From assembly GCA_964479005.1 (NCBI GenBank), contig CAYZJA010000001.1:160001-224000 (forward strand): 64,000 nt of DNA, written 5' to 3'. Made by a program: the position numbers and the translations under genes. Positions within the stretch are counted from its first letter, which is position 1, and every line of letters begins with the position of its first letter. Shown in pieces: positions 11,338-64,000 of the stretch. This DNA is from an uncultured Candidatus Saccharibacteria bacterium (GTDB taxonomy: Bacteria > Patescibacteriota > Minisyncoccia > UBA6257). The notes below the pieces were generated by a model. The model saw nothing but the letters and a program-made list of their open reading frames with translations. It had not been told where the DNA came from and ran no database searches.

Positions 11338-11391
<54 letters not shown>

Positions 11392-11394
11392 ATC

Positions 11395-11421
11395 GCGGTT
11401 TTTCAGAAAAACCCTTTTTTT
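11395..11421 (+). terminator. rho-independent terminator-like hairpin
   Basis: GGTTTTT-cag-AAAAACC stem followed by a CTTTTTTT run. Confidence 0.55.
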
Positions 11422-11506
11422 GTTGGTTCAGTCTATAATACTTAACTTAGGCTGGACTTTTTTATTTGTTAATAAAAATTAAATTTTAAAAATAAAATTA
11501 AAAAAT

Positions 11507-13243: not shown

Positions 13244-13291
13244 TATCTCTGTGTGATAGCAAAGAAATTATTTTAGATAGAGTAAAAACTC

Positions 13292-14227: not shown

Positions 14228-14248
14228 TTTGAAGTCGAGAAAAGTATA

Positions 14249-15160: not shown

Positions 15161-15200
15161 AATTTTCAATTTTTAATTTCCAATTTTTAAATAAATTCTA

Positions 15201-16172
15201 ATGACAAAAACTCAAAAACTAATTTTTATTCTTCTATTTTCTACTTTCTGCTTTCTATTTTTTAGTTCTTCTTCTACTTTAGCCGCGGAGTTATATTTGG
15301 AGAATTCCGAGGATAATTATTACGTTGATGAAACTTTTATTACTGATATAAGGATTAATGTTGAAAATAATGAAAGCATTAATGCTATTGAAGGTTATTT
15401 AAAATTTCCAAGTAATATTTTGGAAGTAAAAGATTTTAGCACTGGTAATTCGATACTTACTTTTATTGAAGAGCCAAAAATTAATAAAGAAGAAGGTTTG
15501 ATTTCTTTTGTTGGAATTATTCCTGGTGGATATAGTGGAAGGATTCCTGGTGATCCTGGACAAAGTAATCTTTTAGGAAAAATAATTTTTTATTCTATTT
15601 TTTCTGGCACAGCAGAGATTATTTTTGAAGATAGATCACAAGCATTATTAAGCGATGGGGAGGGAACACCAGCTAAGTTAATTAATAAAGGAGTAACTAT
15701 TGAGATCGTAACTAAACCCTTCGACTACGCTCAGGGCAAGGATGAATGGCAGGAACAATTAGAAAAAGACAAAATTCCTCCAGAAGATTTTAAACCAGAA
15801 ATTATTAAAATTGATGATAAATATTATTTAGCTTTTACTACTAAAGATAAAGATTCTGGTATTGATCATTATGAAGTTTTAGAAAAGAATTTTTGGACAA
15901 ATATAAGTAAATTATTAGGAAGAGAAAAATGGATAGTCGCAGAAAGTCCTTATTTATTAAATGGGCAATCATTAAGTAATAGGATAGAAATAAAAACAAT
16001 AGATAAAGCGGGCAATGAGAGAATTGTTAAATTACCAGCTACATATTATTTGCCTTGGTATAAAAATTACTTTATTTGGGTTATACTTATAATAAGTATT
16101 TTTTATGTGATATGGAGAATAATCGCGAAACAGAAAAAAAACAATACGCGAAACCCCGAAGAAAAGCCTTAG
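15201..16172 (+). CDS. cohesin-like domain protein, signal peptide, C-terminal TM anchor
   Basis: The signal peptide and beta-sandwich pattern '...IRINVENNESINAIEGYLKFPSNILEV...ISFVGI...GTAEIIFED' are consistent with a cohesin fold. C-terminal TM 'FIWVILIISIFYVIWRII'. Confidence 0.5.
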   Translation: MTKTQKLIFILLFSTFCFLFFSSSSTLAAELYLENSEDNYYVDETFITDIRINVENNESINAIEGYLKFPSNILEVKDFSTGNSILTFIEEPKINKEEGLISFVGIIPGGYSGRIPGDPGQSNLLGKIIFYSIFSGTAEIIFEDRSQALLSDGEGTPAKLINKGVTIEIVTKPFDYAQGKDEWQEQLEKDKIPPEDFKPEIIKIDDKYYLAFTTKDKDSGIDHYEVLEKNFWTNISKLLGREKWIVAESPYLLNGQSLSNRIEIKTIDKAGNERIVKLPATYYLPWYKNYFIWVILIISIFYVIWRIIAKQKKNNTRNPEEKP

Positions 16173-20316: not shown

Positions 20317-21462
20317 TTGACTTTTTGTTTGTTTTTTGCTTTAATTAATAATATGAGTATAAACAATTTTAACTTAAGTAAAGAGAGTCCACATCAATTG
20401 GCTCTTAAAATCATTGCTATTTTACCTTCCCGCACGCAGGATATTGTTAAGAAAAGATTTGGTTTAGATAATAACGATCCTAAAACATTAGAAGCAGTTG
20501 GTCAGGATTATAAGATTACGAGGGAGAGAATTAGGCAAATTATAGAGGTAGCTTTAAAAACTGTTAAAAAACAGCCAGTTTTAAAAATGGCTGATGTTTT
20601 TATAAAGCAAGCTGAACAGATTTTAAAGCAAAGCGGAGGAGTAGACGAGAACGTGAGGTTCCTTACAAAAATAGATAAGCAGTTTAAAGAATCAAAAGGG
20701 AATCTGTCCGCAATTAGATTTTTATTGGCATTAAATCCTGATTTTTCATTTGAAGAAGAAAATGATTTATACAATAGTTTTTGGCATTTTTCCAGGATTT
20801 CCAAAAATAAAATTTATAAAAATATTAAAAATATAGAAGGACTTTTTAAGAAAAAACAATCAACTTATTTGATGAACGAAATATTGACTTTGGTTAAAAA
20901 AAATATTTCCTCAAATATTAATAAGGAAGAGCTAAGGGCATATTTAGAAATATCCAAGAAAGTTGGTATGAATCCATTTGGCGAGTATGGCCTATTTGAT
21001 TGGATGGAGATAGATCCATCTGGCGCTCGCGATAGGGCATATTTAATAATGAAACATTCTAAAAAGCCTTTACATTTTTCTGATATTACAAAACGCCTTA
21101 ATGAGTGTAATGAAATAACTATTCCAGCATCTGTTGCCTCTCATTCTTGGCAAAAGAAAGTATGTATTCAAACAGTGCATAATGAATTAATCCGTGATTC
21201 CCGTTTTGTTCTTATTGGAAGGGGAATTTATGCGTTAGGAGAGTGGGGTTATAAACCTGGAAAAATAGTCAATGTTATTAAGGATATTTTAAAGGAAGCC
21301 GGAAAACCGTTAAAACAGGAAGCAATCATTAAGGAAGTTAAAAAACGCAGAATGGCAAAAGATAATACTATTATTTTGAATCTTCATAATAAGAAATATT
21401 TTAAAAAATTGCCGAATAAATATTATAGCTTAGTTAGGTCCTATAAAATATTAGAGGTTTAA
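20317..21462 (+). CDS. DNA-binding protein with N-terminal sigma-70 region-4-like HTH and C-terminal HARE-HTH-like domain
   Basis: '[46 protein letters not shown]' matches the sigma-70 region 4.2 pattern. The C-terminal 'KPLHFSDITKRL...DSRFVLIGRGIYALGEWGY' resembles the RpoE-delta/HARE-HTH 'DGRFVxLGRGxWGLxEW'. Confidence 0.55.
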   Translation: MTFCLFFALINNMSINNFNLSKESPHQLALKIIAILPSRTQDIVKKRFGLDNNDPKTLEAVGQDYKITRERIRQIIEVALKTVKKQPVLKMADVFIKQAEQILKQSGGVDENVRFLTKIDKQFKESKGNLSAIRFLLALNPDFSFEEENDLYNSFWHFSRISKNKIYKNIKNIEGLFKKKQSTYLMNEILTLVKKNISSNINKEELRAYLEISKKVGMNPFGEYGLFDWMEIDPSGARDRAYLIMKHSKKPLHFSDITKRLNECNEITIPASVASHSWQKKVCIQTVHNELIRDSRFVLIGRGIYALGEWGYKPGKIVNVIKDILKEAGKPLKQEAIIKEVKKRRMAKDNTIILNLHNKKYFKKLPNKYYSLVRSYKILEV

Positions 21463-22655
21463 TGTTAGGAGAGATTATTCGTGAATTTTGGTGGATATTA
21501 GCCCTTATTGTTTTGGGGAAGTTTTTTATTGATTCAAGTAAAAAGTATGAAGAGAAAAAAAAGAAAGAAAAAGAAGAGATAAAAGATTGGGTTACTCTAC
21601 AAGCAAAGATTAATCGTGAGATATTACAAACTCCTAAAGCAATGGAGCAAGTATTTAATGGTTTTCATGTTATAGAAAAGGGATATATTTGCTTAGAGCT
21701 GGTTGGTATGGACAGAGAGATATATTTTATTATTCGCGCACCTAAAGAATATAAAAATTTAGTAGAATCACAATTTTACGCGCAATATCCAGAAATAGAA
21801 ATTAAAGAGATTGATGATTATTTTTCACGTCTTCCAGCTCATTTACCAAATAAGGATTTTGATTTATGGGGAACCGAGATCATTTTAGAAAAAGAAAATT
21901 ATTATCCTATTAAAACTTATTCTTATTTTGAGGAATTAAAAGAAGAAAAAAGAATTGATCCAATATCAAGTTTTGCAGAAAGTATTGCCAAGCTTCAAAA
22001 ATCTGAATGGTTTATTTTAGAGATTCTTATTAAACCTCTTTCTGATAAAGATGAGGAAAAATTTATAAATGAAGGGAAAAAACAGATTGACAGTATGTTA
22101 GGTAAAAAAAAGGGAAAAGAAATTACTTGGACAGATTGGGTTGGAGCTTTTTTTAAAAATCTTTTAGTAGGACTAGTTGAACCTCCAGTTTGGCCTACAA
22201 AAGAAGAAAAGAAAAATGGGGCGCCTTTAGTCATTTCATCTGGTGAAAAGGATATAATTAAATCAATTGAAAATAAAATAAGCCGATTATCATTTAATAC
22301 AAACATAAGATTGATTTATATTTCCCCAAAAAAGATTTTTAACGAATCTAATATTTCCGCTTTTATGGCGTTTTTGAAACAATTTAATTCAAAAGATTTA
22401 AATGGTTTTAAGATCAACAAAGACGCTTCTACAATTCTTAAATCTAAATTTTTGCAAAACAGAAGATTATTTTTAAAAAAGATGGATTTTTATCAAAAGT
22501 GTTTAAAGCGAACAAAAACGCAAGATGCAATGATTTTAAACACAGAAGAATTGGCGACTATTTATCATTTCCCGGCATTAAAGGTTGTAACCCCTACATT
22601 GGTCAGGGTTTTGAGTAAAAAAGGCGAACCGCCAGCAGGGTTGCCAGTAGAATAA
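21462..22655 (+). CDS. membrane-anchored hypothetical protein, translationally coupled to flanking genes
   Basis: N-terminal TM 'FWWILALIVLGKFFI' and a Lys/Glu-rich linker. TAATG overlap with the upstream gene and a 4-nt gap to the downstream ATPase. Confidence 0.5.
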   Translation: MLGEIIREFWWILALIVLGKFFIDSSKKYEEKKKKEKEEIKDWVTLQAKINREILQTPKAMEQVFNGFHVIEKGYICLELVGMDREIYFIIRAPKEYKNLVESQFYAQYPEIEIKEIDDYFSRLPAHLPNKDFDLWGTEIILEKENYYPIKTYSYFEELKEEKRIDPISSFAESIAKLQKSEWFILEILIKPLSDKDEEKFINEGKKQIDSMLGKKKGKEITWTDWVGAFFKNLLVGLVEPPVWPTKEEKKNGAPLVISSGEKDIIKSIENKISRLSFNTNIRLIYISPKKIFNESNISAFMAFLKQFNSKDLNGFKINKDASTILKSKFLQNRRLFLKKMDFYQKCLKRTKTQDAMILNTEELATIYHFPALKVVTPTLVRVLSKKGEPPAGLPVE

Positions 22656-22659
22656 ATTT

Positions 22660-24210
22660 ATGGATATAAATCATATTGGAATAACAAATTTTAGAGATGA
22701 ATTTCAGCGATTTGGCATTAAAGCCGATGATAGGCGTCGGCATATATATTTTGTTGGAAAGAGTGGAGTAGGTAAGACTACAATGATGGAGAATATGATT
22801 ATTCAGGATATTAATAATGACAAAGGTGTATGTGTTATTGATCCTCACGGAGAATTAATAAACAGAGTTCTTTACTTTATTCCTGAAAACAGAATAAAAG
22901 ATGTGATTTATTTTAATCCTGGCGATGTTGAATGGCCAATTGCTTTTAATGTTATTGAAGAAGTTCCAGTAGAATATCGCCATTTGGTTGTAGCGGGTTT
23001 AATGGGAGTCTTTAAAAAAATCTGGCCAGATGTATGGTCTGCCAGAATGGAATATATCTTAAATAATGCTTTACTGGCTCTTTTAGAATATCCTGGAGCA
23101 ACGCTTTTAGCTGTAAACAGATTGCTTTCTGACGAAGATTTTCGTAAAGCAGTAATGAAAAAGGTAACAGATCCAATAGTTAAATCTTTTTGGGAAAGAG
23201 AGTTTGCTCGTTATAATGCCCGCTTTGCGACAGAAGCAATTGCTCCAATTCAAAATAAAGTTGGGCAATTTATTTCAAACCCTTTAATTAGAAATATTAT
23301 TGGACAGAAAGAATCAAAAATTGATATCAGGAAAATAATGGATGATGGTAAGATTCTTTTAGCTAATTTGTCAAAAGGAATGGTTGGTGAGGATAATTCT
23401 AGTCTTTTGGGAGCTCTCTTGGTTACAAAAATACAATTAGCTGCAATGAGCCGTATAGATGTTCCTGAAGAGAAAAGAAAGGATTTTTATTTGTACGTAG
23501 ATGAGTTTCAAAATTTTTCCACTGAATCATTTGCTTCTATTTTTGCCGAAGCTAGAAAGTATCGTTTAAACTTAGCTTTAGCTCATCAATATATAGCTCA
23601 ACTTAATGAGCAAGTTAAAGATTCTATTTTTGGTAATATAGGAACTTTGATTTCTTTTAGATTGGGCCCTGAAGACGCGGAATTACTGGAAAAATATTTT
23701 GCTCCAGAATTTTCAAAAGAAGATTTAATTAATCTTCCAAATTATAATTTTTATATAAAATTGATGATTGATGGTGTTTTGTCCAAAAGTTTTTCAGCGA
23801 TGAATATACCACCTTCTAGTTTGCCAGAGAACTCGTTTATACAAGAAATAATTCAGTATTCACGTGAGCATTATGCTGCTTTGCGGCAAGAAATTGAAAA
23901 GAATATCGCGCATTGGGAGTTATTGGATTTTTCTCCAAGCTTCAAGGCAGGGGATCTTAGAAGCAGAAAAGTTGGCGTTAAAGAAGGTTGGGAAGCTGTA
24001 TGTTCTCAATGTGGAAAAAGAATTATTGTACCTTTTCAACCAGATCCTGCCAGGCCTGTTTATTGTGATGAATGTTTTAAAGAAATACGAAGGCAAAGAG
24101 GAAAAGATTTAACACATGCAAATTCTGTTCAGCATACTCAATCTAAAATTAAACCAAAAAAAGAAGAAATAAAGGAGGTAATTAAAAATATTTTCCGTCA
24201 GGATACTTAA
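22660..24210 (+). CDS. TraD/VirD4 (type IV coupling protein)-like FtsK/HerA-superfamily P-loop ATPase with C-terminal zinc ribbon
   Basis: Walker A 'FVGKSGVGKTT', then 'VIDPHGE' (cf. VirD4 DPKGE), Walker B 'YLYVDEFQNF', C-terminal 'CSQCGKRIIVPF..PVYCDECF' CxxC..CxxC. No TM segments. Confidence 0.6.
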   Translation: MDINHIGITNFRDEFQRFGIKADDRRRHIYFVGKSGVGKTTMMENMIIQDINNDKGVCVIDPHGELINRVLYFIPENRIKDVIYFNPGDVEWPIAFNVIEEVPVEYRHLVVAGLMGVFKKIWPDVWSARMEYILNNALLALLEYPGATLLAVNRLLSDEDFRKAVMKKVTDPIVKSFWEREFARYNARFATEAIAPIQNKVGQFISNPLIRNIIGQKESKIDIRKIMDDGKILLANLSKGMVGEDNSSLLGALLVTKIQLAAMSRIDVPEEKRKDFYLYVDEFQNFSTESFASIFAEARKYRLNLALAHQYIAQLNEQVKDSIFGNIGTLISFRLGPEDAELLEKYFAPEFSKEDLINLPNYNFYIKLMIDGVLSKSFSAMNIPPSSLPENSFIQEIIQYSREHYAALRQEIEKNIAHWELLDFSPSFKAGDLRSRKVGVKEGWEAVCSQCGKRIIVPFQPDPARPVYCDECFKEIRRQRGKDLTHANSVQHTQSKIKPKKEEIKEVIKNIFRQDT

Positions 24211-30192: not shown

Positions 30193-32064
30193 ATGGATTC
30201 AAAAGAGTTAAGAAAAAGATTTTTGAAGTTTTTTGAACAAAGAGGGCATAAAATAATCCCTTCTTCTTCTTTAATTCCAGAAAATGATTCAACGACCTTG
30301 TTTACTGGTTCAGGAATGCAGCCTTTAGTGCCGTATTTGATGGGCGAGTCTCATTCTAAAGGCAAGCGGTTAGTAAATGTCCAAAAATCATTTCGAGCTG
30401 AAGACATTGAAGAAGTAGGTGATAATCGTCATACAACCTTTTTTGAAATGCTGGGCAATTGGTCATTAGGCGATTATTTTAAAAAAGAACAATTAAATTG
30501 GTTGTTTGAATTTCTCATTGAGGAAGTAAAATTAGATCCTAAAAAGATTTACGTATCTGTTTTCCGAGGGAATGAAAAAATTGGCATCAATAGAGACTTA
30601 GAATCTGTTCAGGTTTGGAAAGATATTTTTAAAAAAAATGGAATTGAAGCTAATGACGTCGATTATTCTGAAAAACATGGATTTCAAGATGGTCGTATTT
30701 TTTATTATGACGAAACCAAAAATTGGTGGTCACGTTCAGGAACTCCGGCTAATATGCCGATTGGAGAAATTGGGGGGCCAGATAGCGAAGTTTTTTATGA
30801 TTTAGGAGAAGAATTAAAACGGCATGAAAATTCTAAATGGCGAAATCAACCTTGTCATATTAATTGTGATTGCGGGCGTTTTATTGAAATCGGCAACAGC
30901 GTTTTTATAGAATTTATTCGTTCTGCAAAAGGATTTGAATCCTTACCGCAAAAGAACGTAGATTTTGGCGGTGGTTTGGAAAGAATTACTATGGTAGCGC
31001 AAGGTAAGAACAATATTTTCAAAACAGATTTATTTATTAGTATCATTAAAAGAATTGAAGAATTGTCAGGTAAAAAATATGAAGACAATATGCAATCATT
31101 TGAAATTATTGCGGACCATTTAAGGGCCGCAACCTTTATTATGGGTGATGATAGGGGAATTGTTCCTTCTAATGTTGATCAGGGATATATAGCTCGCCGA
31201 TTAATTAGAAGGGCTATTCGTTATGGTCGGCAAATAGATATTCAACAGAAATCCTGGACTCAGGAAATAGCAAAAGTCATAAATAATGATTATAAATTAA
31301 TTTATCCTGAATTAACCCATAATCTTAAATTTATAACAAATAATTTAGAAAAAGAAGAAATTAAATTCAGTAAAACATTGGAGAAAGGGCTAAAAGAATT
31401 AGAAAGATATAAGAGTAGTGGAAAAGAAATCACAGGAATAATAGCTTTTGATTTATATCAAACCTATGGATTTCCTTTTGAAATGACTGAAGAAGAATTA
31501 TTTAAATCTGGTATTAAAATAAAAAATCCAGAAAAGTTCAAAGAAGCATTGATTAAGCATCAAGAACTTTCTCGAACTGCTGCTGTTGGTAAATTTAAAG
31601 GCGGATTAGCTGATGTTTCTGATAAAACCAAGAAACTTCATACTGCTTGCCACCTTGTTTTAGCTGCTTTAAGGAGTGTGTTAGGGGATCATGTAGAGCA
31701 AAGAGGCTCAAATATCACGGCTGAACGTCTTCGTTTTGATTTTTCTCATACTGAAAAACTTACCTTAGAACAAAAAACTACAGTGGAAAAAATGGTAAAT
31801 GAAGCAATTCAAAAAGATTTGCCAGTGCTTTCCGAAGAGATGTTATTGGAAGATGCTAAAAAACAAGGGGCACTAGGAATATTTGAGTCAAAATATGGAG
31901 AAAAAGTAAAAGTTTATACTATTGGAGAAAAAGATAATTCTTTTTCAAAAGAAATTTGTGGTGGTCCACACGTAGAATCCACTGGTAAATTGGGTTATTT
32001 TAGGATTATTAAAGAAGAATCATCGGGGGCAGGCGTTAGGAGAATTAAGGCTGTTTTAGAATAG
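30193..32064 (+). CDS. alaS: alanine--tRNA ligase, short form lacking C-terminal (C-Ala/DHHA1) region
   Basis: Catalytic core 'FTGSGMQPLVPYLMGE', 'FEMLGNWSLGDYFK' and the editing HxxxH 'HTACHLVLAALR'. It ends after 'CGGPHV' at 623 aa. Confidence 0.85.
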   Translation: MDSKELRKRFLKFFEQRGHKIIPSSSLIPENDSTTLFTGSGMQPLVPYLMGESHSKGKRLVNVQKSFRAEDIEEVGDNRHTTFFEMLGNWSLGDYFKKEQLNWLFEFLIEEVKLDPKKIYVSVFRGNEKIGINRDLESVQVWKDIFKKNGIEANDVDYSEKHGFQDGRIFYYDETKNWWSRSGTPANMPIGEIGGPDSEVFYDLGEELKRHENSKWRNQPCHINCDCGRFIEIGNSVFIEFIRSAKGFESLPQKNVDFGGGLERITMVAQGKNNIFKTDLFISIIKRIEELSGKKYEDNMQSFEIIADHLRAATFIMGDDRGIVPSNVDQGYIARRLIRRAIRYGRQIDIQQKSWTQEIAKVINNDYKLIYPELTHNLKFITNNLEKEEIKFSKTLEKGLKELERYKSSGKEITGIIAFDLYQTYGFPFEMTEEELFKSGIKIKNPEKFKEALIKHQELSRTAAVGKFKGGLADVSDKTKKLHTACHLVLAALRSVLGDHVEQRGSNITAERLRFDFSHTEKLTLEQKTTVEKMVNEAIQKDLPVLSEEMLLEDAKKQGALGIFESKYGEKVKVYTIGEKDNSFSKEICGGPHVESTGKLGYFRIIKEESSGAGVRRIKAVLE

Positions 32065-38771: not shown

Positions 38772-38938
38772 ATTGGAAATTATTGGGAAAAAATATCAAC
38801 TGGATATTGAGAAAAAAATAGTACTTTATAGCACCTTGAAAAATAGCACCTTGAAATAAAAATTTAGTGAAATGAGAGATAAGAAAAAGATAAAAGTATA
38901 AGAAAGAAATGTATTAGAAAGAAAGGAGGTGAAACAAA

Positions 38939-40138
38939 ATGACAAAACGCAAATGGACTAAAGAAGATGACGAATATCTTATCCAACATAGTCCGAAACA
39001 ACGGGGAGATTATGGGAAGTTGGCTATCAAACTTGATAGAACAGTAGAAGCAGTGAGGTATAGGTGTAGAAATCTAAAATTGGAAAATGTCCAAAAGAAT
39101 AGTCAGGCACAGAGAACAGATGTTCCATTAGAAGATAGGATTTACGAATTGCTTTCACATTCCAAAAAACATTCTATTGAGGAGCTAAGTAATACATTTG
39201 ATATTTGTGTAGGAAAGGTTAAAGAAGCATTAGGTGTATTACAGAGCAGACGGATTTTAATAGACGCAATAGATGACAAAATTGTTTTAGGGAATACGAT
39301 TAAACCACCAAAAGCCACTCCAATTCCGATGAAGATTTATCATAATAGGTGGATTAAGTTTGGAGTAATCAGTGATACTCATTTGAACTCCAAATATCAA
39401 AGATTGGATATTTTAAACCACGCTTATAAAATCTTTCAGAAAGAAGGAGTGAAGAATGTTCTACACGCTGGGAATATTATAGATGGTTATGGTAGATTAA
39501 ATCAGTTTGATGTATTTAACATCGGGACAGAAGACCAAATCAACTATTGTATTGAAACCTATCCTTGTAAGCAAGGGATTACTACTCACTTCATTACTGC
39601 TGATGATCACGAGGGATGGATTGTAAGGAGAGAACACATTAACATCGGAGAATTACTTGAACTCAAAGCTAACAAAATGGGTAGAAAAGATTTGAAACAT
39701 TTAGGATATATTGAAAGTGATGTGTTAGTTAAAGTTGGAAGCAAACCTACAAGAATTAGAGTATTCCATCCTGGCGGAGGCACAGCATATTCTCTTTCTT
39801 ATAAACCTCAGAAGATTGTTGAGTCCTTACAGGGTGGAGAAAAACCTGATATATTATTAGTCGGACATTTTCATAAACTCGGACATTTTGAATGGCGGAA
39901 TGTGGAAGTGTTATTGACTGGTTGTATAGAAGACCAAACTCCATTTATGAGAAAGAAACATATTGCTGCTCATCTTGGTTTCTATATTGTGAAAGCCCAT
40001 ATTGCTCCTGACGGTTCTGTCAATAGATTCATTCCAGAAAAGATTAGCTATTACGATAGGAAATATTATACCAGCAGAGCTTGGAAGAAAACTCCTACCA
40101 GTTTTGAAAAACCTATTGAATGGTTTTACAAGTGGTAA
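38939..40138 (+). CDS. Myb/SANT-like HTH + winged-helix fused to calcineurin-like metallophosphoesterase (phage-type)
   Basis: N-terminal 'KWTKEDDEYLIQH...GDYGKLAIKLDRTVEAVRYRC'. Phosphoesterase motifs 'GVISDTHL', 'HAGNIIDG', 'LLVGHFHK'. Consensus SD 'AAGGAGGTG' upstream. Confidence 0.6.
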   Translation: MTKRKWTKEDDEYLIQHSPKQRGDYGKLAIKLDRTVEAVRYRCRNLKLENVQKNSQAQRTDVPLEDRIYELLSHSKKHSIEELSNTFDICVGKVKEALGVLQSRRILIDAIDDKIVLGNTIKPPKATPIPMKIYHNRWIKFGVISDTHLNSKYQRLDILNHAYKIFQKEGVKNVLHAGNIIDGYGRLNQFDVFNIGTEDQINYCIETYPCKQGITTHFITADDHEGWIVRREHINIGELLELKANKMGRKDLKHLGYIESDVLVKVGSKPTRIRVFHPGGGTAYSLSYKPQKIVESLQGGEKPDILLVGHFHKLGHFEWRNVEVLLTGCIEDQTPFMRKKHIAAHLGFYIVKAHIAPDGSVNRFIPEKISYYDRKYYTSRAWKKTPTSFEKPIEWFYKW

Positions 40139-40208
40139 GTATTCGCTCTTAAAACAAAACGGGGTGTCTTAAACACAGACACCCCTAATCTCACAGGAGG
40201 TGATTTTG

Positions 40209-40781
40209 ATGAAAATCTTAATCGATTTGGACGGAACAGTATTTGAGACTTACGACACTTTAGAAGAAAAGTTTGTCCAGAAATTTAATCGCAAAATGAA
40301 CTGGCAGGCGCTGAAAAGCGGCAAGAATCATTACTGGCAAACAGATGGGGGTAAGTGGATAGTCAAGCAATTCAAAGACCCAAACTTTTATTACAATTTA
40401 GAAACTTATCCTGATGCTCCCAAAGTGTTAAGGCAACTTGCCCGAAAACATACAATCATATATTGTACCGCGAGGAGGTTTGGATTAGAAAATGCCACCT
40501 CCTATTCGCTTGGTTATAGAAAACTGCCATTCGGGAAGGTATATTGTATTGGCAGGAGACACATTGCGGGGGTTAAAAAGAGAATTGCCTTAGATGAAAA
40601 AATTGACCTTGCTATTGATGATGAATCAAAAGTGGTAGAAAAACTTTCTGAAGTCTGTCAAGTTTTGATATTTACTCAGAATTATAATAAAGGTTGTAAA
40701 TTCGGTAAGAGAGTAAAATCTTGGAAGGAGGTGCGTCATGAATTACAAGCAAAGAAAAGAAATAATAGAACAAGCAAATAA
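40209..40781 (+). CDS. 5'(3')-deoxyribonucleotidase-like HAD protein (NT5C family)
   Basis: 'MKILIDLDGTVFETYD' DxDGT at the N-terminus, ~190 aa, with SD 'CAGGAGGTG'. ATG 40209 is preferred over the track start 40200. Confidence 0.5.
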   Translation: MKILIDLDGTVFETYDTLEEKFVQKFNRKMNWQALKSGKNHYWQTDGGKWIVKQFKDPNFYYNLETYPDAPKVLRQLARKHTIIYCTARRFGLENATSYSLGYRKLPFGKVYCIGRRHIAGVKKRIALDEKIDLAIDDESKVVEKLSEVCQVLIFTQNYNKGCKFGKRVKSWKEVRHELQAKKRNNRTSK

Positions 40782-41073
40782 AAGACGTCAATCCTTAATG
40801 CTTAATAAAGGAAAAGAATATTCAAAGGGTAATGCCGATATTAATTATAACTTTAAAGAAGTTGCTGATAGATTAGGCACTCGTCTTGCTGGAACTCCTG
40901 AATATACTTGTTTAGTTTATTTATTCAAACAGATTTTATCAATAGAGAAATGGGCAAGAGATGGAAAGTTAAGTTCAGGGGAAACAATTTTTTCAAGATT
41001 AGATGATGCCAGAAACTACATGGATATTTTAGAAAGTCTGATAAGAGAAAAATCCGATGTACAAGGAAGGTGA
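40738..41073 (+). CDS. hypothetical protein (111 aa)
   Basis: An ORF with SD 'GGAAGGAGGTG' that overlaps the upstream gene. Confidence 0.45.
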   Translation: MNYKQRKEIIEQANKRRQSLMLNKGKEYSKGNADINYNFKEVADRLGTRLAGTPEYTCLVYLFKQILSIEKWARDGKLSSGETIFSRLDDARNYMDILESLIREKSDVQGR

Positions 41074-41077
41074 TGGT

Positions 41078-41224
41078 ATGGAAATTCAGAATGTTTACTG
41101 TTTGATTAAGATTACTTGTGTTGTGATTATTGTAGTAGGATTTTTCGCAATTGTTCAATTACATCTTAAAAGAGAAAAGCAAAGGATACGGGATTATTAT
41201 AAAAGAGGAGGTGATAAGCGATGA
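41078..41224 (+). CDS. small membrane protein (48 aa), holin-like size
   Basis: Manual ORF 'MEIQNVYCLIKITCVVIIVVGFFAIVQLHLKREKQRIRDYYKRGGDKR' with one TM and a charged C-terminus. ATGA overlap with the next gene. Confidence 0.35.
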   Translation: MEIQNVYCLIKITCVVIIVVGFFAIVQLHLKREKQRIRDYYKRGGDKR

Positions 41225-42303
41225 AAAAACTACTCGTAGTATTGATTTGTTTGTTTCTATTAGTTCCAACTGTAATTTCTGCACCAGTTGAAAGATTAAG
41301 TGTAGGAGATTTTACTCGTGCAGTAACGGCTCAGATAGTCTGTAATGTTGATGTGTATAGACGGGATTTAACCTGGTATAAGATTGAGGATGGTCAGGTG
41401 ATCCCTGAATTCAAAGATTTAGATGAAGATGACTGGGCATATCAATGGTTAAAGAAAGGCTGGTTCGTGGTATATGGCGAATGGAATACAGAACCTCGCA
41501 AAGGTAAGATAATGGGTTCTGGTGAAGTATTATATTCCTGGTTATTACCTATGGGGATTAACTTAGAAGGTAAACCTGCTGCAACTTATGTAGGCACAAA
41601 TGCCCATGTGGTAGATGTATTTATGTTAGAAGCCAGTAGGGGTTCAAGAGATAAACCATTAGACCTATATGCCGAGAAGGACACGATGAAGACAATGAAT
41701 ATGCTTAGAACGACTTATAAAGAAGAGGCTAAACCAATAGCCCAGTATTACTTTGATATAGATAACAGTTATATCACTGTAAAGACCGAAGCAGACCAAA
41801 GATTTAGAACTAAAGTTAACATCGTATTGTTTGACATAGCATTAGATTTTGCCTTATTGGAAATGGAAAATGTTTTAGGTCTGCCTTATGTGAGTTTTAG
41901 AGGCACTCCTATACAGGTTGGCGAAACGATTAAAATCTGTGGAGCACCATTAGGATTTGCTTTTAGTAGAGACGAAGGACGAGTAAGTCAAGTTCACTTA
42001 AATCTCGGAACTGATGGAGTGGAAGATTATATTGTATGGGATAACCAAGTGCGTATGGATATTGCTGCTGCACCAGGAAGTTCGGGTAGTGCGATATTTG
42101 ATAAAGATGGCTATATGATTGCCCAATTACACGGAATAATGGTTCACAACGGCAACTATATTCAAGGCGGACAATTAGCAGTAGACCAAGAAGATATAAT
42201 TCGTTTTCTGGTGTTAAATGGTTTTTCGTGGATAGTTCAAAATCCTTATGGAATTTGGGCTAACGCACCATATAATACAGTCCGACCAAAAGTAGGAGAA
42301 TAG
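41221..42303 (+). CDS. secreted trypsin-like (S1/Trypsin_2) serine protease
   Basis: Signal peptide 'MKKLLVVLICLFLLVPTVISAP'. Catalytic His 'GTNAHVV', Asp 'DFALLEME' and Ser 'APGSSGSAIFD'. SD 'GAGGAGGTG'. Confidence 0.6.
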   Translation: MKKLLVVLICLFLLVPTVISAPVERLSVGDFTRAVTAQIVCNVDVYRRDLTWYKIEDGQVIPEFKDLDEDDWAYQWLKKGWFVVYGEWNTEPRKGKIMGSGEVLYSWLLPMGINLEGKPAATYVGTNAHVVDVFMLEASRGSRDKPLDLYAEKDTMKTMNMLRTTYKEEAKPIAQYYFDIDNSYITVKTEADQRFRTKVNIVLFDIALDFALLEMENVLGLPYVSFRGTPIQVGETIKICGAPLGFAFSRDEGRVSQVHLNLGTDGVEDYIVWDNQVRMDIAAAPGSSGSAIFDKDGYMIAQLHGIMVHNGNYIQGGQLAVDQEDIIRFLVLNGFSWIVQNPYGIWANAPYNTVRPKVGE

Positions 42304-42380
42304 AAATGAGAATTAACGCAGAGGGGGCTTACCTTGATGGTTTCTAAAAGTCCCCCTCCAGCTGTATGGAGGTGATTAAG

Positions 42381-42530
42381 ATGAGGTGGTTATTACTCAC
42401 ATTTGCAATATCTACTATCATATCTTTTGTAGGATTTGTGAATTGTAAAATGGAAAAGGAGAAAGATTGGTTTATTGCGTTATTGGTTTCTGCAACATTA
42501 GTTGTATTGATGTTTGTTGAATTATCTTAG
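42381..42530 (+). CDS. small two-TM membrane protein (49 aa)
   Basis: Manual ORF 'MRWLLLTFAISTIISFVGFVNCKMEKEKDWFIALLVSATLVVLMFVELS' with SD 'GGAGGTG'. Confidence 0.35.
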   Translation: MRWLLLTFAISTIISFVGFVNCKMEKEKDWFIALLVSATLVVLMFVELS

Positions 42531-42545
42531 GGGGAGGTGATAGAG

Positions 42546-42893
42546 ATGAAGAAACGAAGAAAAAAGCAAAAAGTTAAGAGAGAAGTTTTAAAGAAAATTG
42601 TTAGAGAGAAAAAGGTTTGTTATTTCTGTGGAACTACCGAGAATATAACCGAGCATCACATAATTTTTAAGTGTTTCATTAAAGGCGGAGAGTTACCAAA
42701 TAACAAGAAAGACATTTGTGATAAGTGCCACAAGCAGTTTCATAAATTAGCAAAACCTGTTGTGGATTTACTCTTATCGGTAATTCAAGGATTACAACCG
42801 AAACCAACTCGGAAAATAGGATTCATAAGAACGAACAACAAAGGAGGCGAAAGAAATGAGAAACATAAAAAGATGTCTATTGTTCTATCCTGA
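42546..42893 (+). CDS. HNH endonuclease
   Basis: 'CYFCGTTENITEHHII...NKKDICDKCHKQFH' is an HNH/CxxC..CxxH pattern, with SD 'GGGGGAGGTG'. Confidence 0.6.
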   Translation: MKKRRKKQKVKREVLKKIVREKKVCYFCGTTENITEHHIIFKCFIKGGELPNNKKDICDKCHKQFHKLAKPVVDLLLSVIQGLQPKPTRKIGFIRTNNKGGERNEKHKKMSIVLS

Positions 42894-43080
42894 CATACTG
42901 CCAGCTTTACCTTGTTCTTATCCCGATGAGGATAAATGCGGTAGATATATGAAAATCTATCGTAGAAGTAAGAACAGAAAACAGGCAATAGTTCTTTGCT
43001 CACATCGGGTTAAAGAATTAGGTAGAAAGACTTGTGTCAGAGAACAAATGAAACTCAAAGATTCTACAATTTACAGGTAG
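42856..43080 (+). CDS. small Cys-rich protein, paralog A (74 aa)
   Basis: 'C...P.LPCSYPDEDKCGRY...CSHRVKELGRKTC' shares a motif with 43436..43630. Confidence 0.45.
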   Translation: MRNIKRCLLFYPDILPALPCSYPDEDKCGRYMKIYRRSKNRKQAIVLCSHRVKELGRKTCVREQMKLKDSTIYR

Positions 43081-55109: not shown

Positions 55110-56066
55110 ATGAAAAAGAACCAAAAACCAATCCCCTGTCATTTATCTGATTTTTTAGATTGGTTAGATATTGAAAAAGGTTTATCTTCTAAATCCCAGG
55201 AAAATTATAATAGATTTTTAAAAAAATTTTTAGATTGGTTAAAATCAAATAATTTAGAGGGTTTAAAGCCTCATGAATTAACTACTGATCATGTTTGGAA
55301 ATATCGGGTTTTCCTCTCGCGCCGATATCTTCCTAAAACGAAAACACCCCTTAAAAAAACAACTCAAAATTATTATTTAATAGCTTTAAGGTCCTTTTTG
55401 AATTATTTTGCTGATAGAGATATTTTGTCTTTACCATCTGAAAAGATAAAATTAGCTAAAGATAGAGATGAAAAACAAGTTAGTTTTTTAAATTTAGAGC
55501 AATTAGAGAAATTATTTTCAGCTCCTGACACTTCTAAAAAGCAAGAATTGCGGGACAGAGCTATTTTAGAGGTTTTATTCTCTACTGGTATGAGGATAGC
55601 AGAATTAGTTTCATTAAACCGGGATCAAATTAAAATAAATCCTGGAATAAAAGAATTAGAAGTTGGGATTATTGGCAAAGGGAAAAAACTACGAACTGTT
55701 TATTTCTCTGAAAGAGCTCTATCTTGGTTATCTAAATACTTTAAAACCCGAAATGATGATGAAAAAGCGTTATTTATCAATTATAGAAGCAGGAAAGGAG
55801 CGCCACGGAGATTAACTCCACGTTCAATTGAAAAAAATATGAAAAAATATGTGATTATGTCAGGGGTTCCAATAACAACTACTCCTCACGCCATGCGCCA
55901 TACTTTTTCGACAGATCTTTTAAATCAAGGCGTGGATTTAAAAATACTCCAGGAATTTCTTGGCCACAAAAGCATTGCCGCTACACAAATTTACGCGCAT
56001 GTTACGAGTAAAAAACTTCGTGAGGTACATCGGAAATTTCACAGTGGCCGTAAATTAAAAACATAA
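55110..56066 (+). CDS. tyrosine site-specific recombinase (XerC/XerD-like)
   Basis: C-terminal catalytic 'HAMRHTFSTDLLNQGVDLKILQEFLGHKSIAATQIYAHV' (R..H..R..Y) and an N-terminal SAM-like core-binding domain. Confidence 0.8.
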   Translation: MKKNQKPIPCHLSDFLDWLDIEKGLSSKSQENYNRFLKKFLDWLKSNNLEGLKPHELTTDHVWKYRVFLSRRYLPKTKTPLKKTTQNYYLIALRSFLNYFADRDILSLPSEKIKLAKDRDEKQVSFLNLEQLEKLFSAPDTSKKQELRDRAILEVLFSTGMRIAELVSLNRDQIKINPGIKELEVGIIGKGKKLRTVYFSERALSWLSKYFKTRNDDEKALFINYRSRKGAPRRLTPRSIEKNMKKYVIMSGVPITTTPHAMRHTFSTDLLNQGVDLKILQEFLGHKSIAATQIYAHVTSKKLREVHRKFHSGRKLKT

Positions 56067-56129
56067 GTAAAATAAATAAAATAAGGTAGAGGTTTGTTCC
56101 CCTACCTTATAAATTCAGCTTCTATGTTT

Positions 56130-56336
56130 CTACATTTTATTTTCAATCAATCTTAGAATTCTTTTCCATTTCTCAAAATTCTTATTAATAACTTTTGAAA
56201 TTTTTTTCCAATCTTCAGGGGATGGCTCACGTATGCCCTTTTTTGGTTCCCCTAAAAAGATTTCCCCTGTTTTTGTATCACAAACAATATCATCTCCATT
56301 TTCTAATTTACCTATTTCTTCCCAATTAGCCATCAT
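56130..56336 (-). CDS. small hypothetical protein (68 aa)
   Basis: SD 'GAGGTG'. Overlaps the upstream gene by ATGA. Confidence 0.4.
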   Translation of the reverse strand: MMANWEEIGKLENGDDIVCDTKTGEIFLGEPKKGIREPSPEDWKKISKVINKNFEKWKRILRLIENKM

Positions 56337-56649
56337 TTTTCACCTCTTCGATAATTTTATCAATCTTTAATCTATCATTAGGTACAAGATCTTTCATTTT
56401 GAGACCGAAAACCTCATTAATTACGCGAGTAAGGATGTTTTCTAGATTTTCATTTACTTTTTCCTCTAATTCTTTTATTTGTCTCAGTAGGCCGTCAATC
56501 TCGATGTCTTTATGGATGTTTTTAGCTTCCAGCTCAGACCATAGATTCTCAAAATAAGATTTAATGGCTATGTCTAGCAGGTCTTTTTGGGTATCTGATA
56601 GATAGTTACAATTCCAAATAAAATCAATAAGTTTTTCCCTGAGAGTCAT
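56326..56649 (-). CDS. hypothetical protein (107 aa), coiled-coil rich
   Basis: SD 'AAGGAGGAG' and a predicted helical fold. Confidence 0.4.
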   Translation of the reverse strand: MTLREKLIDFIWNCNYLSDTQKDLLDIAIKSYFENLWSELEAKNIHKDIEIDGLLRQIKELEEKVNENLENILTRVINEVFGLKMKDLVPNDRLKIDKIIEEVKNDG

Positions 56650-56701
56650 TTATTCACTCCTCCTTTTTTTATTTATTTCAGATTTTTGAATCTCAATCTA
56701 T

Positions 56702-56899
56702 CTAATAAATTTGTGTCTTTTCTTTATGTATACCATCAAGAATTGCTTTTATTCGCGGTTCTGATTTTTTATTGATGTACTTCCCTTGGTCTTTTATTTC
56801 TTTTTTGCTCATTTTCTTACCTTTTCCTCTTGTCCGCGGTCTTTTTAGAATATCAGCCGGACTAGAGCACAATGTTATTTGCTCTGATATTTTTGCCAT
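56702..56899 (-). CDS. small basic protein (65 aa), possible DNA-binding regulator
   Basis: SD 'GAAGGAGGGG'. The sequence is Lys/Arg-rich ('KRPRTRGKGKKMSKKEIK'). Confidence 0.4.
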   Translation of the reverse strand: MAKISEQITLCSSPADILKRPRTRGKGKKMSKKEIKDQGKYINKKSEPRIKAILDGIHKEKTQIY

Positions 56900-56961
56900 T
56901 ACAATCCCCTCCTTCTATATATTTTTTATATTTTTATTATTATTCAGTTTTCAATCTGCAA

Positions 56962-56979
56962 GCTACACAGTCATGTAGC
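56962..56979. promoter_or_regulatory. palindromic operator-like site GCTACA-cagtca-TGTAGC
   Basis: A perfect 6-bp inverted repeat overlapping the predicted transcription start of the minus-strand promoter. Confidence 0.35.
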
Positions 56980-56982
56980 CTT

Positions 56983-57012
56983 ATTATATCAATAATCATT
57001 AGACCTGTCAAC
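56983..57012 (-). promoter_or_regulatory. sigma-70 promoter (minus strand) TTGACA-18-TATAAT
   Basis: The reverse complement of 57007-57012 is TTGACA and of 56983-56988 is TATAAT. It drives the three small minus-strand genes. Confidence 0.45.
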
Positions 57013-57121
57013 CCAGCACTACCTATACATAGGTGCGTGGGGTATATGAAATTGAATAAATAAATGCTAATATAACTAACATTGCCCATTATTATTTGTT
57101 AATTGTTATTTGTTAATTTTT

Positions 57122-58303
57122 ATGAGAATAAGTTATTCCAGTTTAGAGAATTTTAAACAGTGTCCTCTAAAATATAAGTTTTCTAATATAGATAAAATAA
57201 AAGAGCCTAAAAGCAAAGAGGCTATTTTTGGCACTTATATTCATAAAGTTCTGAAATGGTTTTATCAAAAAGATCCACACTTCCCTACTCTTGATGCTTT
57301 ATTAAAGTATTATCGTGATTATTGGCCTAGAAAAACAGAAGGATTTGAATGGAAAGATCCTGAAGAAGAAAAATCTTATTTCAAAGAGGGGTTAAGAATA
57401 TTAGAAGAATTTTATAAGAAAAATATTCCACATAAAACATCTATTTTGGATTTAGAAACAAGGTTTGAAGTTGTTATTGATGAAAATCCTAATAAACCAA
57501 ATGGCAAGCATATTTTAACAGGCGTAATAGATAGAATAGATAAATTACCAGATGATACAATTGAAATAATTGATTATAAAACAGGAAAAAGAATGCCTTC
57601 TCAAAAAGCTTTAGATAAAAATGATCAACTTTCTCTTTACGCTATTGGATTAAAAAGCCGTTGGCCAAGAACTAAAATTGAAGATTTACGCCTAAGCTTA
57701 TATTTTCTTAAGTTCAATGAAAGAATAAATACCAAAAGAACAGAAAAAGACTTGGAAGAAGCAAAAGATAAAATAATAAATTTAATTCATCGAATAGAAA
57801 AAAGCGATTTTGAACCTCATTCTTCAGCATTATGTGGTTGGTGCGGTTATCGTAATATTTGTCCAATTTGGCGGCATTTTTATGAAGACGAGGAAAGCAA
57901 TCATTTAAATGATATAGATATTAAAGAAAAAATAGATAAATACTTTGTTTTAAAAAAAGAAAAAGAAAAATTAGAACAAGAATTATTAGAATTAAAGAAT
58001 TTAATTGATGTTTATTGTCATCAAAAAGGATTAAAGCGCGTATTTGGTGAAAATGGTTATTTTAGCCATACTGTTTATAACAAAGTTTCTTATGATATTC
58101 CTAAATTAAAAGAAATTTTAGAGCCATTGGAAAAATGGGAAGATATTATTGAAATTAATGCTAAAAAATTAAAAAAGGTTTTAAAAGAGATACCTGCTGA
58201 TTTGAGGGAAAAAATAAAAGAAACAGAAAAAATAGAAGAAAAATTTAAATACTTATCCACCAACCATATAAGCAAAAAAGAAATCAAAGAGCAACTGCCT
58301 TAG
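57122..58303 (+). CDS. PD-(D/E)XK nuclease of the Cas4/RecB-AddB nuclease-domain type with C-terminal Cys cluster
   Basis: 'IDRIDKL..IEIIDYKTGK' (D..EhhDYK core), 'DQLSLYAI' (QhxxY), and a C-terminal 'CGWCGYRNICPIW' Fe-S-type cysteine cluster plus an N-terminal 'CPLKY' Cys. Confidence 0.6.
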   Translation: MRISYSSLENFKQCPLKYKFSNIDKIKEPKSKEAIFGTYIHKVLKWFYQKDPHFPTLDALLKYYRDYWPRKTEGFEWKDPEEEKSYFKEGLRILEEFYKKNIPHKTSILDLETRFEVVIDENPNKPNGKHILTGVIDRIDKLPDDTIEIIDYKTGKRMPSQKALDKNDQLSLYAIGLKSRWPRTKIEDLRLSLYFLKFNERINTKRTEKDLEEAKDKIINLIHRIEKSDFEPHSSALCGWCGYRNICPIWRHFYEDEESNHLNDIDIKEKIDKYFVLKKEKEKLEQELLELKNLIDVYCHQKGLKRVFGENGYFSHTVYNKVSYDIPKLKEILEPLEKWEDIIEINAKKLKKVLKEIPADLREKIKETEKIEEKFKYLSTNHISKKEIKEQLP

Positions 58304-62232: not shown

Positions 62233-62790
62233 ATGGGACATCGTATATTTATTGCTTCACATTTACCAAATGATGTTAAGAAAATCTTTTTAGATTATCA
62301 ACAAAAGAAACTCCACAATTTTGGTTTTCGGCTTATACCTGAGCAGGCCTTACATTTAACATTGGTCTTTATTGGATATGTTAGTAATGATAATATATTG
62401 AAAATTAATAAAGCTTGTCAAAATATTGCTTCCTTGTTCTTTCCAATAGAGGTTAAATTAAATAAAATAACTTATGGTCCAAATCCACACTCCCCTCGCC
62501 TAATTTGGGCAGAAGGCGAAATTTCAAAGAATTTAGACAAACTTCATAAAGCATTAGAAAATGAATTAATGGACCAGGGAATAAATTTTAAAATAGAAAA
62601 TCGTTTATTCAAACCCCATGTTACTTTAGCGCGCTTCCAAAATGAAACAAAACCACCACGTCTATCAGAACTGGAAGAAAAAATTAATAAATCTTTTGTA
62701 ATTAATTCCATATCTATTATAGAGAGCGAATTAAGTCGTTCAGGACCACAATATACGGATTTAGCCACATATACATTAAATTTTAAATAA
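62233..62790 (+). CDS. thpR: RNA 2',3'-cyclic phosphodiesterase (2H family, LigT/ThpR)
   Basis: Two H-x-T-x motifs, 'HLTLVFIG' and 'HVTLARF', at 185 aa. Confidence 0.75.
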   Translation: MGHRIFIASHLPNDVKKIFLDYQQKKLHNFGFRLIPEQALHLTLVFIGYVSNDNILKINKACQNIASLFFPIEVKLNKITYGPNPHSPRLIWAEGEISKNLDKLHKALENELMDQGINFKIENRLFKPHVTLARFQNETKPPRLSELEEKINKSFVINSISIIESELSRSGPQYTDLATYTLNFK

Positions 62791-63626
62791 TGTTTATTAT
62801 TAACGTAATTCCATTGACTAATATTCCAAGGCCTCAACCACAAATTTTTTCTTATTTTTATAAGTCGGATTTAATAAAAGGATCTATTGTTGAAATACCT
62901 TTAAGACGCAGGAATGTAATGGCAATAGTGTTGAATTCAGCGTCTGTGTCTTCAAAAAAAGCAACCTTAAAAAAGGCTGATTTTGTTTTAAAACCAATAA
63001 ATAAAGTTATCTCTTCAAGGCAGATAGTTCCACCATTATTTTTTTCTTTAGCAGATTTTATCTCTCGTTATTATTTTTATCCAATTTCGTTGTGTTTGAA
63101 AATTATTTTACCACGTCGCATGAAATCTTTAATAAATTATGTAGAAAAACTAGAAAAAGATTTTCCAAAATATTTTGATCCATCAGTTTCAAAGACAAAA
63201 AAAGATAAAATAGAAAAAATAGGTTCCTACAATTTTTCTGATGTTATTAAAAAAATAAAGGCAAATCTTAAAAACAAAAAACAGGTGTTAATTCTCGTTC
63301 CAACTATTTTCTATCAAAATTATTATTTTACTAAATTATCATCTAAAATCTCTATACCAATTTTTATTTCCTCAAATGATTTAAAAATTAAAGAATTTAA
63401 TTCTTTATGGACAAAAATTAATTCTCAGGAAGCGCAATTAATTATAGGACGGCGTTCTTCTCTGTTTCTGCCATGGCAAAATTTAGGACTTATAATTGTA
63501 GTGGATGGAAGCAATAATTCTTATAAATCGTGGAATCAAAAACCTTATTATAACGCCGCTTTTCTTATTAACTATTTAGCTTTGTATTATAATACTTCAA
63601 TTATTTACTATAATGCCTGTTATTAA
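62790..63626 (+). CDS. priA: primosomal protein N' (PriA), N-terminal portion; Walker A/DExH degenerate
   Basis: 3'-DNA-binding-like N-terminus 'GSIVEIPLRRRNVMAIVL' and motif Ia-like 'QVLILVPTIFYQ'. Walker A and DExH positions read 'GSYNFS' and 'VDGS'. Ends 'NACY*'. Confidence 0.55.
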   Translation: MFIINVIPLTNIPRPQPQIFSYFYKSDLIKGSIVEIPLRRRNVMAIVLNSASVSSKKATLKKADFVLKPINKVISSRQIVPPLFFSLADFISRYYFYPISLCLKIILPRRMKSLINYVEKLEKDFPKYFDPSVSKTKKDKIEKIGSYNFSDVIKKIKANLKNKKQVLILVPTIFYQNYYFTKLSSKISIPIFISSNDLKIKEFNSLWTKINSQEAQLIIGRRSSLFLPWQNLGLIIVVDGSNNSYKSWNQKPYYNAAFLINYLALYYNTSIIYYNACY

Positions 63627-64000
63627 AATTATTGATCTAAAAAAGGTTAGAAAAGAGAAAAAACTATTTCAGGCTATTTCTCCTGATGCTTTTATTGAAA
63701 TTCAAAAAGCCCTAAAAAAAAGAAAAAGGATTATTATTTTTATTAACAGAAGGGGGTTAGCAACAAGCATTATATGCCAGGAATGTGGTTTTGTATTTAA
63801 ATGCCCAAATTGTGATATCCCCTTGGGGTTTCATAATAAATCTAAGCTTATTTGTCATCATTGTAATTATAATGTTTCTATACCACCAGTTTGTCCTTCT
63901 TGCAGGGGCTATAAGCTTAAAGCTTTGGGAATTGGTATTGAGAGAATTGCTGAAGAAATTAAAAAATTTATTATTCCAACGCCTATTTTTATGTTAATCG
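63613..64000 (+). CDS. priA: PriA C-terminal portion (helicase C lobe with Cys-rich zinc-binding insert), other frame, runs off the window end
   Basis: Manual translation 'MPVIKIIDLKK...IIIFINRRGLATSIICQECGFVFKCPNCDIPLGFHNKSKLICHHCNYNVSIPPVCPSCRGY' shows the PriA FLNRRG and CxxC..CxxC..CxxC..CxxC pattern. Confidence 0.6.
   Translation, partial: MPVIKIIDLKKVRKEKKLFQAISPDAFIEIQKALKKRKRIIIFINRRGLATSIICQECGFVFKCPNCDIPLGFHNKSKLICHHCNYNVSIPPVCPSCRGYKLKALGIGIERIAEEIKKFIIPTPIFMLI

Follow-up and report, generated by a model that had tools for sequence, protein, structure and literature searches.

A probable two-subunit, ATPase-dead PriA encoded by overlapping genes in a Parcubacteria/Paceibacteria bacterium

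The last 1.8 kb of a 64,000-nucleotide stretch of DNA from an uncultured bacterium of the UBA6257 lineage (Patescibacteriota; Minisyncoccia), positions 160,001 to 224,000 of contig CAYZJA010000001.1 in assembly GCA_964479005.1 and hereafter the window, carries two overlapping open reading frames (ORFs) that correspond to the N- and C-terminal parts of PriA, the near-universal bacterial replisome-reloading factor. An initial annotation had described this region as a PriA with degenerate ATPase motifs that is divided between two reading frames. Following up this description by profile searches, structure prediction and comparison with related sequences, we conclude that the two ORFs quite probably encode a two-subunit, ATPase-dead PriA (a "pseudohelicase") that acts as an ATP-independent fork-recognition adaptor in this Parcubacteria/Paceibacteria bacterium of the candidate phyla radiation (CPR). 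The features of the locus, in window coordinates, are the following.

62233..62790, plus strand: ligT/thpR-like RNA 2',3'-cyclic phosphodiesterase gene (TIGR02258, E 1.1e-36; Pfam LigT_PEase)
62790..63626, plus strand: priA-N (ORF1), 278 amino acids, stop codon TAA; 3'-end-binding domain (3'BD) and RecA-like lobe 1, with the ATPase motifs lost
62823..63113, plus strand: 3'BD, residues 12-108 (Pfam PF17764, PriA_3primeBD)
63222..63239, plus strand: former Walker A/P-loop site, G145-SYNFS-150, with no Lys/Thr (alignment and AlphaFold2 (AF2) model)
63282..63473, plus strand: retained DNA-contacting elements of lobe 1, the motif Ia-like QVLILVPT and the motif Ib-like IIGRRSSLFLP (conserved columns)
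63501..63512, plus strand: former motif II (DExH) site, V238-DGS-241 (alignment)
63519..63554, plus strand: conserved aromatic-rich loop, SYKSWNQKPYYN, where the canonical sequence is SYKQ..PRYHARD (alignment)
63613..63626, plus strand: 14-nt overlap of the priA-N stop and the priA-C start, ATGCCTGTTATTAA
63613..64000, plus strand: priA-C (ORF2), from ATG 63613 in the +1 frame; first 129 of 365 codons, running off the window end
63739..63756, plus strand: motif IV, FINRRG, retained (alignment)
63775..63903, plus strand: cysteine-rich region (CRR) with four CxxC pairs, CQEC, CPNC, CHHC and CPSC (Pfam PF18319, Zn_ribbon_PriA, E 1.7e-7)

The gene boundaries given in the initial annotation, with ORF1 stopping at 63626 and the PriA C-lobe continuing in the +1 frame from the ATG at 63613, were confirmed, as was the intact set of four CxxC pairs in the C-part, which is predicted to be a two-zinc module. 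The remainder of priA-C beyond the window was taken from an identical 88-kb contig at JGI (L001:10824-11921), and the full ORF2 of 365 residues comprises lobe 2, the CRR and the PriA C-terminal domain (PF18074, which on L001 lies outside the window). The 3'BD profile matched ORF1 with 49.9 bits against a cut-off of 22.7 (E 2.9e-13). On the TIGR00595 priA profile, ORF1 covers positions 15-133 and ORF2 begins at position 166 (E 1e-34), so that approximately 32 profile positions are absent at the junction. With 66.6 bits for ORF1 and 225.4 bits for ORF2, neither half scored singly reaches the equivalog cut-off of this profile (230.35 bits), while their in-silico concatenation scores 289.5 bits and a fused sister protein 292.7. 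Because each half falls below the cut-off, both are named 'hypothetical protein' at NCBI. A 99-residue ORF on the minus strand (62544..62843) was taken as a shadow of ligT and priA-N and set aside.

Motifs were assigned by comparison with Klebsiella PriA (4nl4) and by MAFFT alignment with six PriAs of other phyla whose motifs are intact. At the Walker A position GSYNFS stands in place of GxGKT, within a segment that is hypervariable among relatives and gapped or variable in all split sequences, and the motif II position reads VDGS in place of DExH, the consensus of the split clade being D-G-N-N. Both placements had been made in the initial annotation and are upheld by alignment to canonical PriAs, that of Walker A also by the AF2 model. 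The alignment of ORF1 to PriA likewise stands, but it does not end at motif Ia as first described; motif Ib, the motif II position and the aromatic-rich loop are aligned as well, up to the final beta-strand of lobe 1. A deletion placed exactly at the ORF boundary removes motif III (GSATP) with the ~30 residues after it, including the inter-lobe linker. Beyond what the initial annotation had noted, motifs V and VI of the C-half are also lost, motif V having degenerated from GTQMxxKG to GTEALLNPQ and motif VI, QVAGRAGR with its QxxGRxGR arginine fingers, reading LLKLKALSKE with a 5-residue deletion. The winged-helix (WH) domain is absent from split PriA, and an extra insertion of ~20 residues lies within the C-terminal domain relative to canonical PriAs.

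Other elements are retained. In the 3'BD pocket, as defined for the E. coli protein (PMC5778457), Y22 and K68 are the equivalents of Tyr18 and Lys61, and Asp17 is replaced by Ser21. The aromatic-rich loop, which has a role in fork DNA binding (PMC5778457), is conserved, and the CRR cysteines are invariant across 26 aligned sequences. The pattern of motif loss is selective, in that nucleotide-binding and coupling elements are erased and DNA- and partner-contacting elements are kept, and it predicts the absence of ATPase activity from split PriA. A PriA orthologue without the Walker A/B catalytic residues is what has been defined as a pseudohelicase (PMC4504706), and split PriA is such an orthologue. 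In the closest relative among metagenome-assembled genomes (MAGs), in which the N-half is 95% identical, PriA-C carries a 16-residue insertion in the CRR between the second and third CxxC (L004:4824-5969).

Both halves are predicted to fold as parts of PriA. AF2 models built on family alignments gave a mean predicted local distance difference test (pLDDT) of 91.3 and a predicted template modelling score (pTM) of 0.87 for ORF1, and 85.0 and 0.79 for ORF2. The top Foldseek matches of both models in the PDB are PriA structures (8fak, 6dcr, 4nl4), with E values of 8e-16 (ORF1) and 4e-22 (ORF2). At the former Walker A site of the ORF1 model only 2-3 residues join the strand at 143-146 to the helix at 149-161, compared with an 8-residue P-loop. 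The last strand of ORF1 (270-274) lies just before its end and ORF2 opens with a confident strand (3-8), which places the cut between the two RecA-like lobes with the linker removed.

The initial annotation had pointed to priA genes of related genomes as a useful comparison, and there the split proved to be kept in 18 loci and ~40 protein clusters. Homologues of ORF1 form 40 clusters at 90% identity, all of 227-294 residues and reaching down to ~32% identity; those of ORF2 form 38 clusters at 45-100% identity, all of 360-381 residues, and ORF2 matches with no more than 40% identity are for the most part fused proteins (572-640 residues), with a few shorter fragments. The MAGs of the split clade are labelled Candidatus Paceibacterota, Parcubacteria group, Patescibacteria UBA6257 or Minisyncoccia. 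In each of the 18 loci whose junctions could be compared (the MAG loci and L034), ORF1 and ORF2 are adjacent and overlapping, and def-fmt follows wherever the contig is long enough. Across 12 pairs (Nei-Gojobori), the ratio of nonsynonymous to synonymous substitution rates (dN/dS) lies between 0.13 and 0.31 in ORF1 and between 0.07 and 0.18 in ORF2 (dS reaching ~1.5), which indicates that both halves are under purifying selection. One further candidate, the P0039 locus L033, was not counted, since its contig ends or shifts in composition right after ORF1 and cannot show the split state.

Split PriA as two subunits of one protein has to be weighed against the idea that the halves are two real, separate proteins that no longer cooperate, for example PriA-N as a stand-alone binder of 3' ends or forks and PriA-C as a zinc-finger adaptor. 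An N-C complex is a proposal by analogy, and without an ATP site the lobes lose what normally makes them clamp together. We nevertheless regard separate functions as unlikely, because the ORFs are strictly adjacent and overlap stop to start, both halves are retained in 18/18 loci with similar dN/dS, and their concatenation scores as a complete PriA.

Programmed ribosomal frameshifting, by which ORF1 and ORF2 would be joined into one PriA polypeptide, is very unlikely. The ORFs do overlap, in all loci the 4-11 codons ahead of the ORF2 ATG are free of stops in the ORF2 frame, ORF2 lies in the +1 frame in most lineages, and ORF1 ends in a UAU-UAA context. However, the geometry of the junction depends on lineage: the overlap is 14, 32 or 8 nt with ORF2 in the +1 frame, or 4 nt with ORF2 in the +2 frame (ATGATG..TGA, the L007 type, present in several independent assemblies). 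This variation in overlap and frame argues against a programmed event, and no slippery sequence is shared across the loci. Depending on lineage, ORF1 stops ahead of the conserved VIKIID strand, within it or beyond it, and the conserved end of ORF1 in the 32-nt class, YYQNY*, is simply what the conserved PIIKIIN of ORF2 reads as in the other frame. The sole invariant feature of the junction is the ATG of ORF2, which occupies one alignment position in 18/18 loci (Met-Pro in 17, Met-Thr in L034) and at which the fused sister proteins have no Met. The conserved ATG, together with the ~30-residue deletion and the varying overlap and frame, also refutes the suggestion of the initial annotation that the gene is frameshifted. 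Reassignment of a stop codon was excluded, as ORF1 ends in TAA, TAG or TGA by lineage and ORF2 lies in another frame. Elsewhere in the window, the ORFs for enolase and a 2-hydroxyacid dehydrogenase overlap by 32 nt (2207-2238), as in one class of priA junction; extended overlaps between genes of one strand may be frequent here, or a start may have been mis-assigned.

That priA is a decaying gene, a recently frameshifted pseudogene of a PriA no longer needed, had been offered as an alternative and is highly improbable. It would fit the loss of all ATPase motifs, the broken reading frame and the reduced genomes of CPR bacteria, but it does not fit dN/dS values of 0.07-0.31 in both halves at such divergence, the lack of internal stops in the 18 divergent loci, the conservation of the cysteines, motif IV, aromatic-rich loop and 3'BD, or the confident AF2 folds. 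A genuine frameshift looks different. On a 27%-GC metagenome contig (L035:2219-4167), a motif-intact and apparently active priA is shifted in frame by 1 nt at an A-run directly ahead of DEEH, and the break, unlike the split-clade junction, lies within a strand and has no start codon, suggesting either a sequencing error or a pseudogene of recent origin. This locus (P0100/L035) had been considered as an independent split of an active PriA and was rejected as a plain frameshift at a homopolymer inside an intact gene; P0100 and P0101, two 90%-identity clusters, share a C-part of 388 residues. Finally, a sequencing or assembly indel in the window has next to no likelihood despite AT-rich sequence with many homopolymers, since 5 public contigs, drawn from at least 3 independent samples (JGI, Logan), encode the identical ORF1 protein, the same layout recurs in MAGs of many studies, and ~30 residues missing at the junction are not the result of a 1-nt shift.

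The wider family places the two-gene, ATPase-dead PriA in an evolutionary series. An exhaustive HMMER search with ORF1 against 1.84 billion representatives at 50% identity returned 5790 matches, of which the best six are split-sized and the ~140 that follow are mostly fused proteins (590-713 residues). Among the 124 nearest fused representatives, 116 lack GxGK[ST], DE[x][HQ] and GRxGR, and GxGK[ST] occurs in one only; column statistics for these fused proteins put the deletion of motif VI at 96% and reveal no Walker A consensus. The fused proteins L021 and L023, the latter from Candidatus Taylorbacteria, are also motif-dead. The taxonomic breadth of this ATPase-dead fused group is read from few organism names (1 named among 10 representatives). 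A profile search with 24 fused pseudohelicases, whose matches were dominated by canonical PriAs, yielded fused intermediates of ~630 residues: P0270 keeps DEEH and lacks Walker A and motif VI, and P0192 and P0264 keep DEEE. All of these, and P0266 as well, keep DEEH or DEEE but have lost Walker A and motif VI, which suggests a stepwise decay of the ATP site in this lineage. Another set of fused, motif-dead proteins (P0102-P0111, ~604-634 residues, one labelled Candidatus Paceibacterota) keeps only 2 of the 4 CxxC pairs, and the zinc module is thus eroding in some lineages as well.

In a neighbour-joining tree of 148 sequences, which carries no support values and includes no Deinococcus sequence, the 17 split sequences form one clade without any fused member. 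Its sister group consists of the fused P0082, P0115 and P0119, in which the linker is already cut to ~20 residues; the P0115 cluster holds an NCBI entry, 'primosomal protein N'' [Candidatus Parcubacteria bacterium]. Loss of the ATPase, a point that the initial annotation did not raise, is ancestral to the much larger fused group, and the split is therefore a later step. The split is shown to be an old, single-origin and selected state that arose in an already ATPase-dead fused lineage with a shrinking linker. The order that appears most parsimonious runs from canonical PriA to an ATPase-dead fused PriA widespread in Parcubacteria, then to linker shrinkage and a single split. In a broader form, we lean towards the view that PriA became a motor-less adaptor for recognizing forks in a large part of Parcubacteria/Paceibacteria (at least 116 clusters at 50% identity) and that an obligate two-subunit PriA followed in one clade of approximately order level by deletion of the inter-lobe hinge.

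Several known proteins are relevant for judging what a PriA of this form could do. The canonical PriA of E. coli and Klebsiella pneumoniae (4NL4, 6DCR, 8FAK) shares with split PriA the 3'BD, two RecA-like lobes, the 4 x CxxC CRR, the C-terminal domain and the def-fmt neighbourhood, whereas split PriA lacks the WH domain, the ATPase motifs and the inter-lobe linker and is encoded by two genes. More closely related are the fused ATPase-dead Parcubacteria PriAs (P0115, L021, L023), which are likewise WH-less, have lost Walker A, DExH and motif VI in the same way and carry an identical 4 x CxxC set, but which are single polypeptides of 600-700 residues with a 20-35-residue linker that retains remnants of motif III. 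The closest case described so far, and the model for a restart adaptor that works without ATP, is the pseudohelicase PriA of Deinococcus radiodurans (Lopper et al. 2015, PMC4504706), which in experiments has neither ATPase nor helicase activity and still binds fork DNA and DnaB. Like split PriA, it has no functional Walker A/B, but it is a single polypeptide in which motifs are substituted (for example GKT to GRT), while here motifs I, III and VI are deleted and two genes are present; as Deinococcus belongs to an unrelated phylum, the two ATPase losses are presumably independent.

Two E. coli variants bear on the loss of the motor and on the cut. The priA300 mutant (K230R) has no ATPase, helicase or translocase activity, is near-wild-type and supports restart in vitro, and a laboratory-split PriA with an insertion at residue 154 and a new start at 157 is almost fully functional (PMC5778457). 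The latter is an artificial suppressor that is cut in the WH linker and remains ATPase-proficient, while the natural cut described here lies between the lobes. The reverse gyrase of Nanoarchaeum equitans is also split at a domain boundary in an ultra-small symbiont, with unlinked genes and retained catalytic activity; it belongs to another protein family, yet is likewise a multidomain helicase-like enzyme encoded as two genes. A full-text literature search returned no paper that ties PriA to Patescibacteria, Parcubacteria or Paceibacteria and none that reports a natural split of priA.

The proposed mechanism for the two-subunit PriA begins with translation of ORF1 and ORF2 as two separate polypeptides, ORF2 being initiated at its own conserved ATG in a manner probably coupled to termination of ORF1. 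By analogy with the systems above, PriA-N and PriA-C would re-associate non-covalently as a heterodimer, which would recognize abandoned forks or D-loops by means of its 3'BD, aromatic-rich loop and lobe surfaces, and the side formed by the CRR and the C-terminal domain would then recruit the machinery for loading the replicative helicase without unwinding of DNA. The helicase-dead primosome protein made as two polypeptides, which was one of the readings in the initial annotation, is supported in that motifs I, II, III and VI are absent and V is degenerate, the layout recurs in the 18 loci and selection is purifying. Also present in the window is a gene for a DnaG primase that has a DnaB-binding domain, which is consistent with the use of a DnaB-type replicative helicase.

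The arrangement of the cluster bears on how the halves may be expressed. The ligT gene opens a cluster of genes on one strand, and its TAA and the ATG of priA-N share 1 nt; the 14-nt overlap of priA-N and priA-C follows and, on L001, priA-C is succeeded at close spacing by def, fmt and an amidase. The order priA-def-fmt is widespread among bacteria. This tight packing suggests co-transcription and possibly coupled translation of the cluster. A consensus scan of the ligT-priA-def-fmt cluster for promoters and terminators gave counts at the chance level of shuffled sequence, and an Rfam scan of the window returned a tRNA-Lys only, with nothing at the priA-N/priA-C junction. The GC content of the window is 31%, and motifs resembling the Shine-Dalgarno (SD) sequence precede only 7 of 56 gene starts, for which reason the AT-rich, SD-less sequence before the ORF2 ATG is normal here.

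Some points weigh against this interpretation. The ORF2 ATG lies up to 32 nt upstream of the ORF1 stop, so that coupled re-initiation would need either backward movement of the ribosome or independent initiation. The existence of two polypeptides, their association and their role in restart are proposed from sequence and by analogy, and the motif calls in the wider fused group were made by regular expressions and MAFFT alignment.

Several other regions of the window are distinctive. At 38900-43000, between the S13-S11-S4-rpoA-L17-L13-S9 operon and an HlyD/MacB ABC system, lies an island with a GC fraction of 0.35-0.38 against flanks of ~0.30 and with strong 'aaggaggtg' SD sites in a window that is otherwise nearly SD-less; its genes encode a Metallophos protein (399 residues), an NT5C deoxynucleotidase, a 111-residue protein of unknown function, a Trypsin_2 protease and an HNH_5 endonuclease. 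The island looks horizontally acquired and is perhaps phage-derived. A few kb upstream of the priA cluster, a tyrosine integrase (55110-56066), several small minus-strand ORFs (one, at 56326-56649, with a strong SD) and a PD-(D/E)XK/DUF2800 nuclease (57110-58303) probably constitute a small integrated element (55110-58303). The region at 7579-17929 contains large ORFs with no or minimal Pfam signal, of 1221 (7579-11244), 578, 311 and 323 residues, with a dockerin domain in one ORF (14249-15160) and a Big_13 Ig-like domain in another (16076-17929), and these may be cell-surface or host-attachment proteins. What looks like a DNA-translocation module (20317-24210) comprises a protein with sigma-70 region 4 and HARE-HTH (20317-21462), a 397-residue ORF of unknown function and a TrwB/HerA-like coupling ATPase that bears a treble-clef zinc finger (22660-24210). 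An alanyl-tRNA synthetase of 623 residues (30193-32064) has catalytic and SAD editing domains and no further detected C-terminal domain, and is followed by a 465-residue ORF without a Pfam match.

The need for the PriA motor outside E. coli and the movement of PriA domains are active questions in replication restart. The locus described here represents a natural, selected combination of two laboratory manipulations, in that the ATPase is killed and the protein is cut, here at the lobe hinge, and it is a system already at hand for finding out which functions of PriA are a matter of architecture alone. With each half below the NCBI cut-off, comparative surveys would mis-score such genomes as lacking PriA. 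The absence of ATPase motifs from at least 100 of the nearest fused Parcubacteria relatives suggests that restart without a motor is widespread among ultra-small bacteria, beyond the single Deinococcus-Thermus precedent. If the broader view of PriA in Parcubacteria/Paceibacteria is borne out, restart in a major bacterial branch would run without the PriA ATPase, and the covalent link between the lobes would be dispensable.

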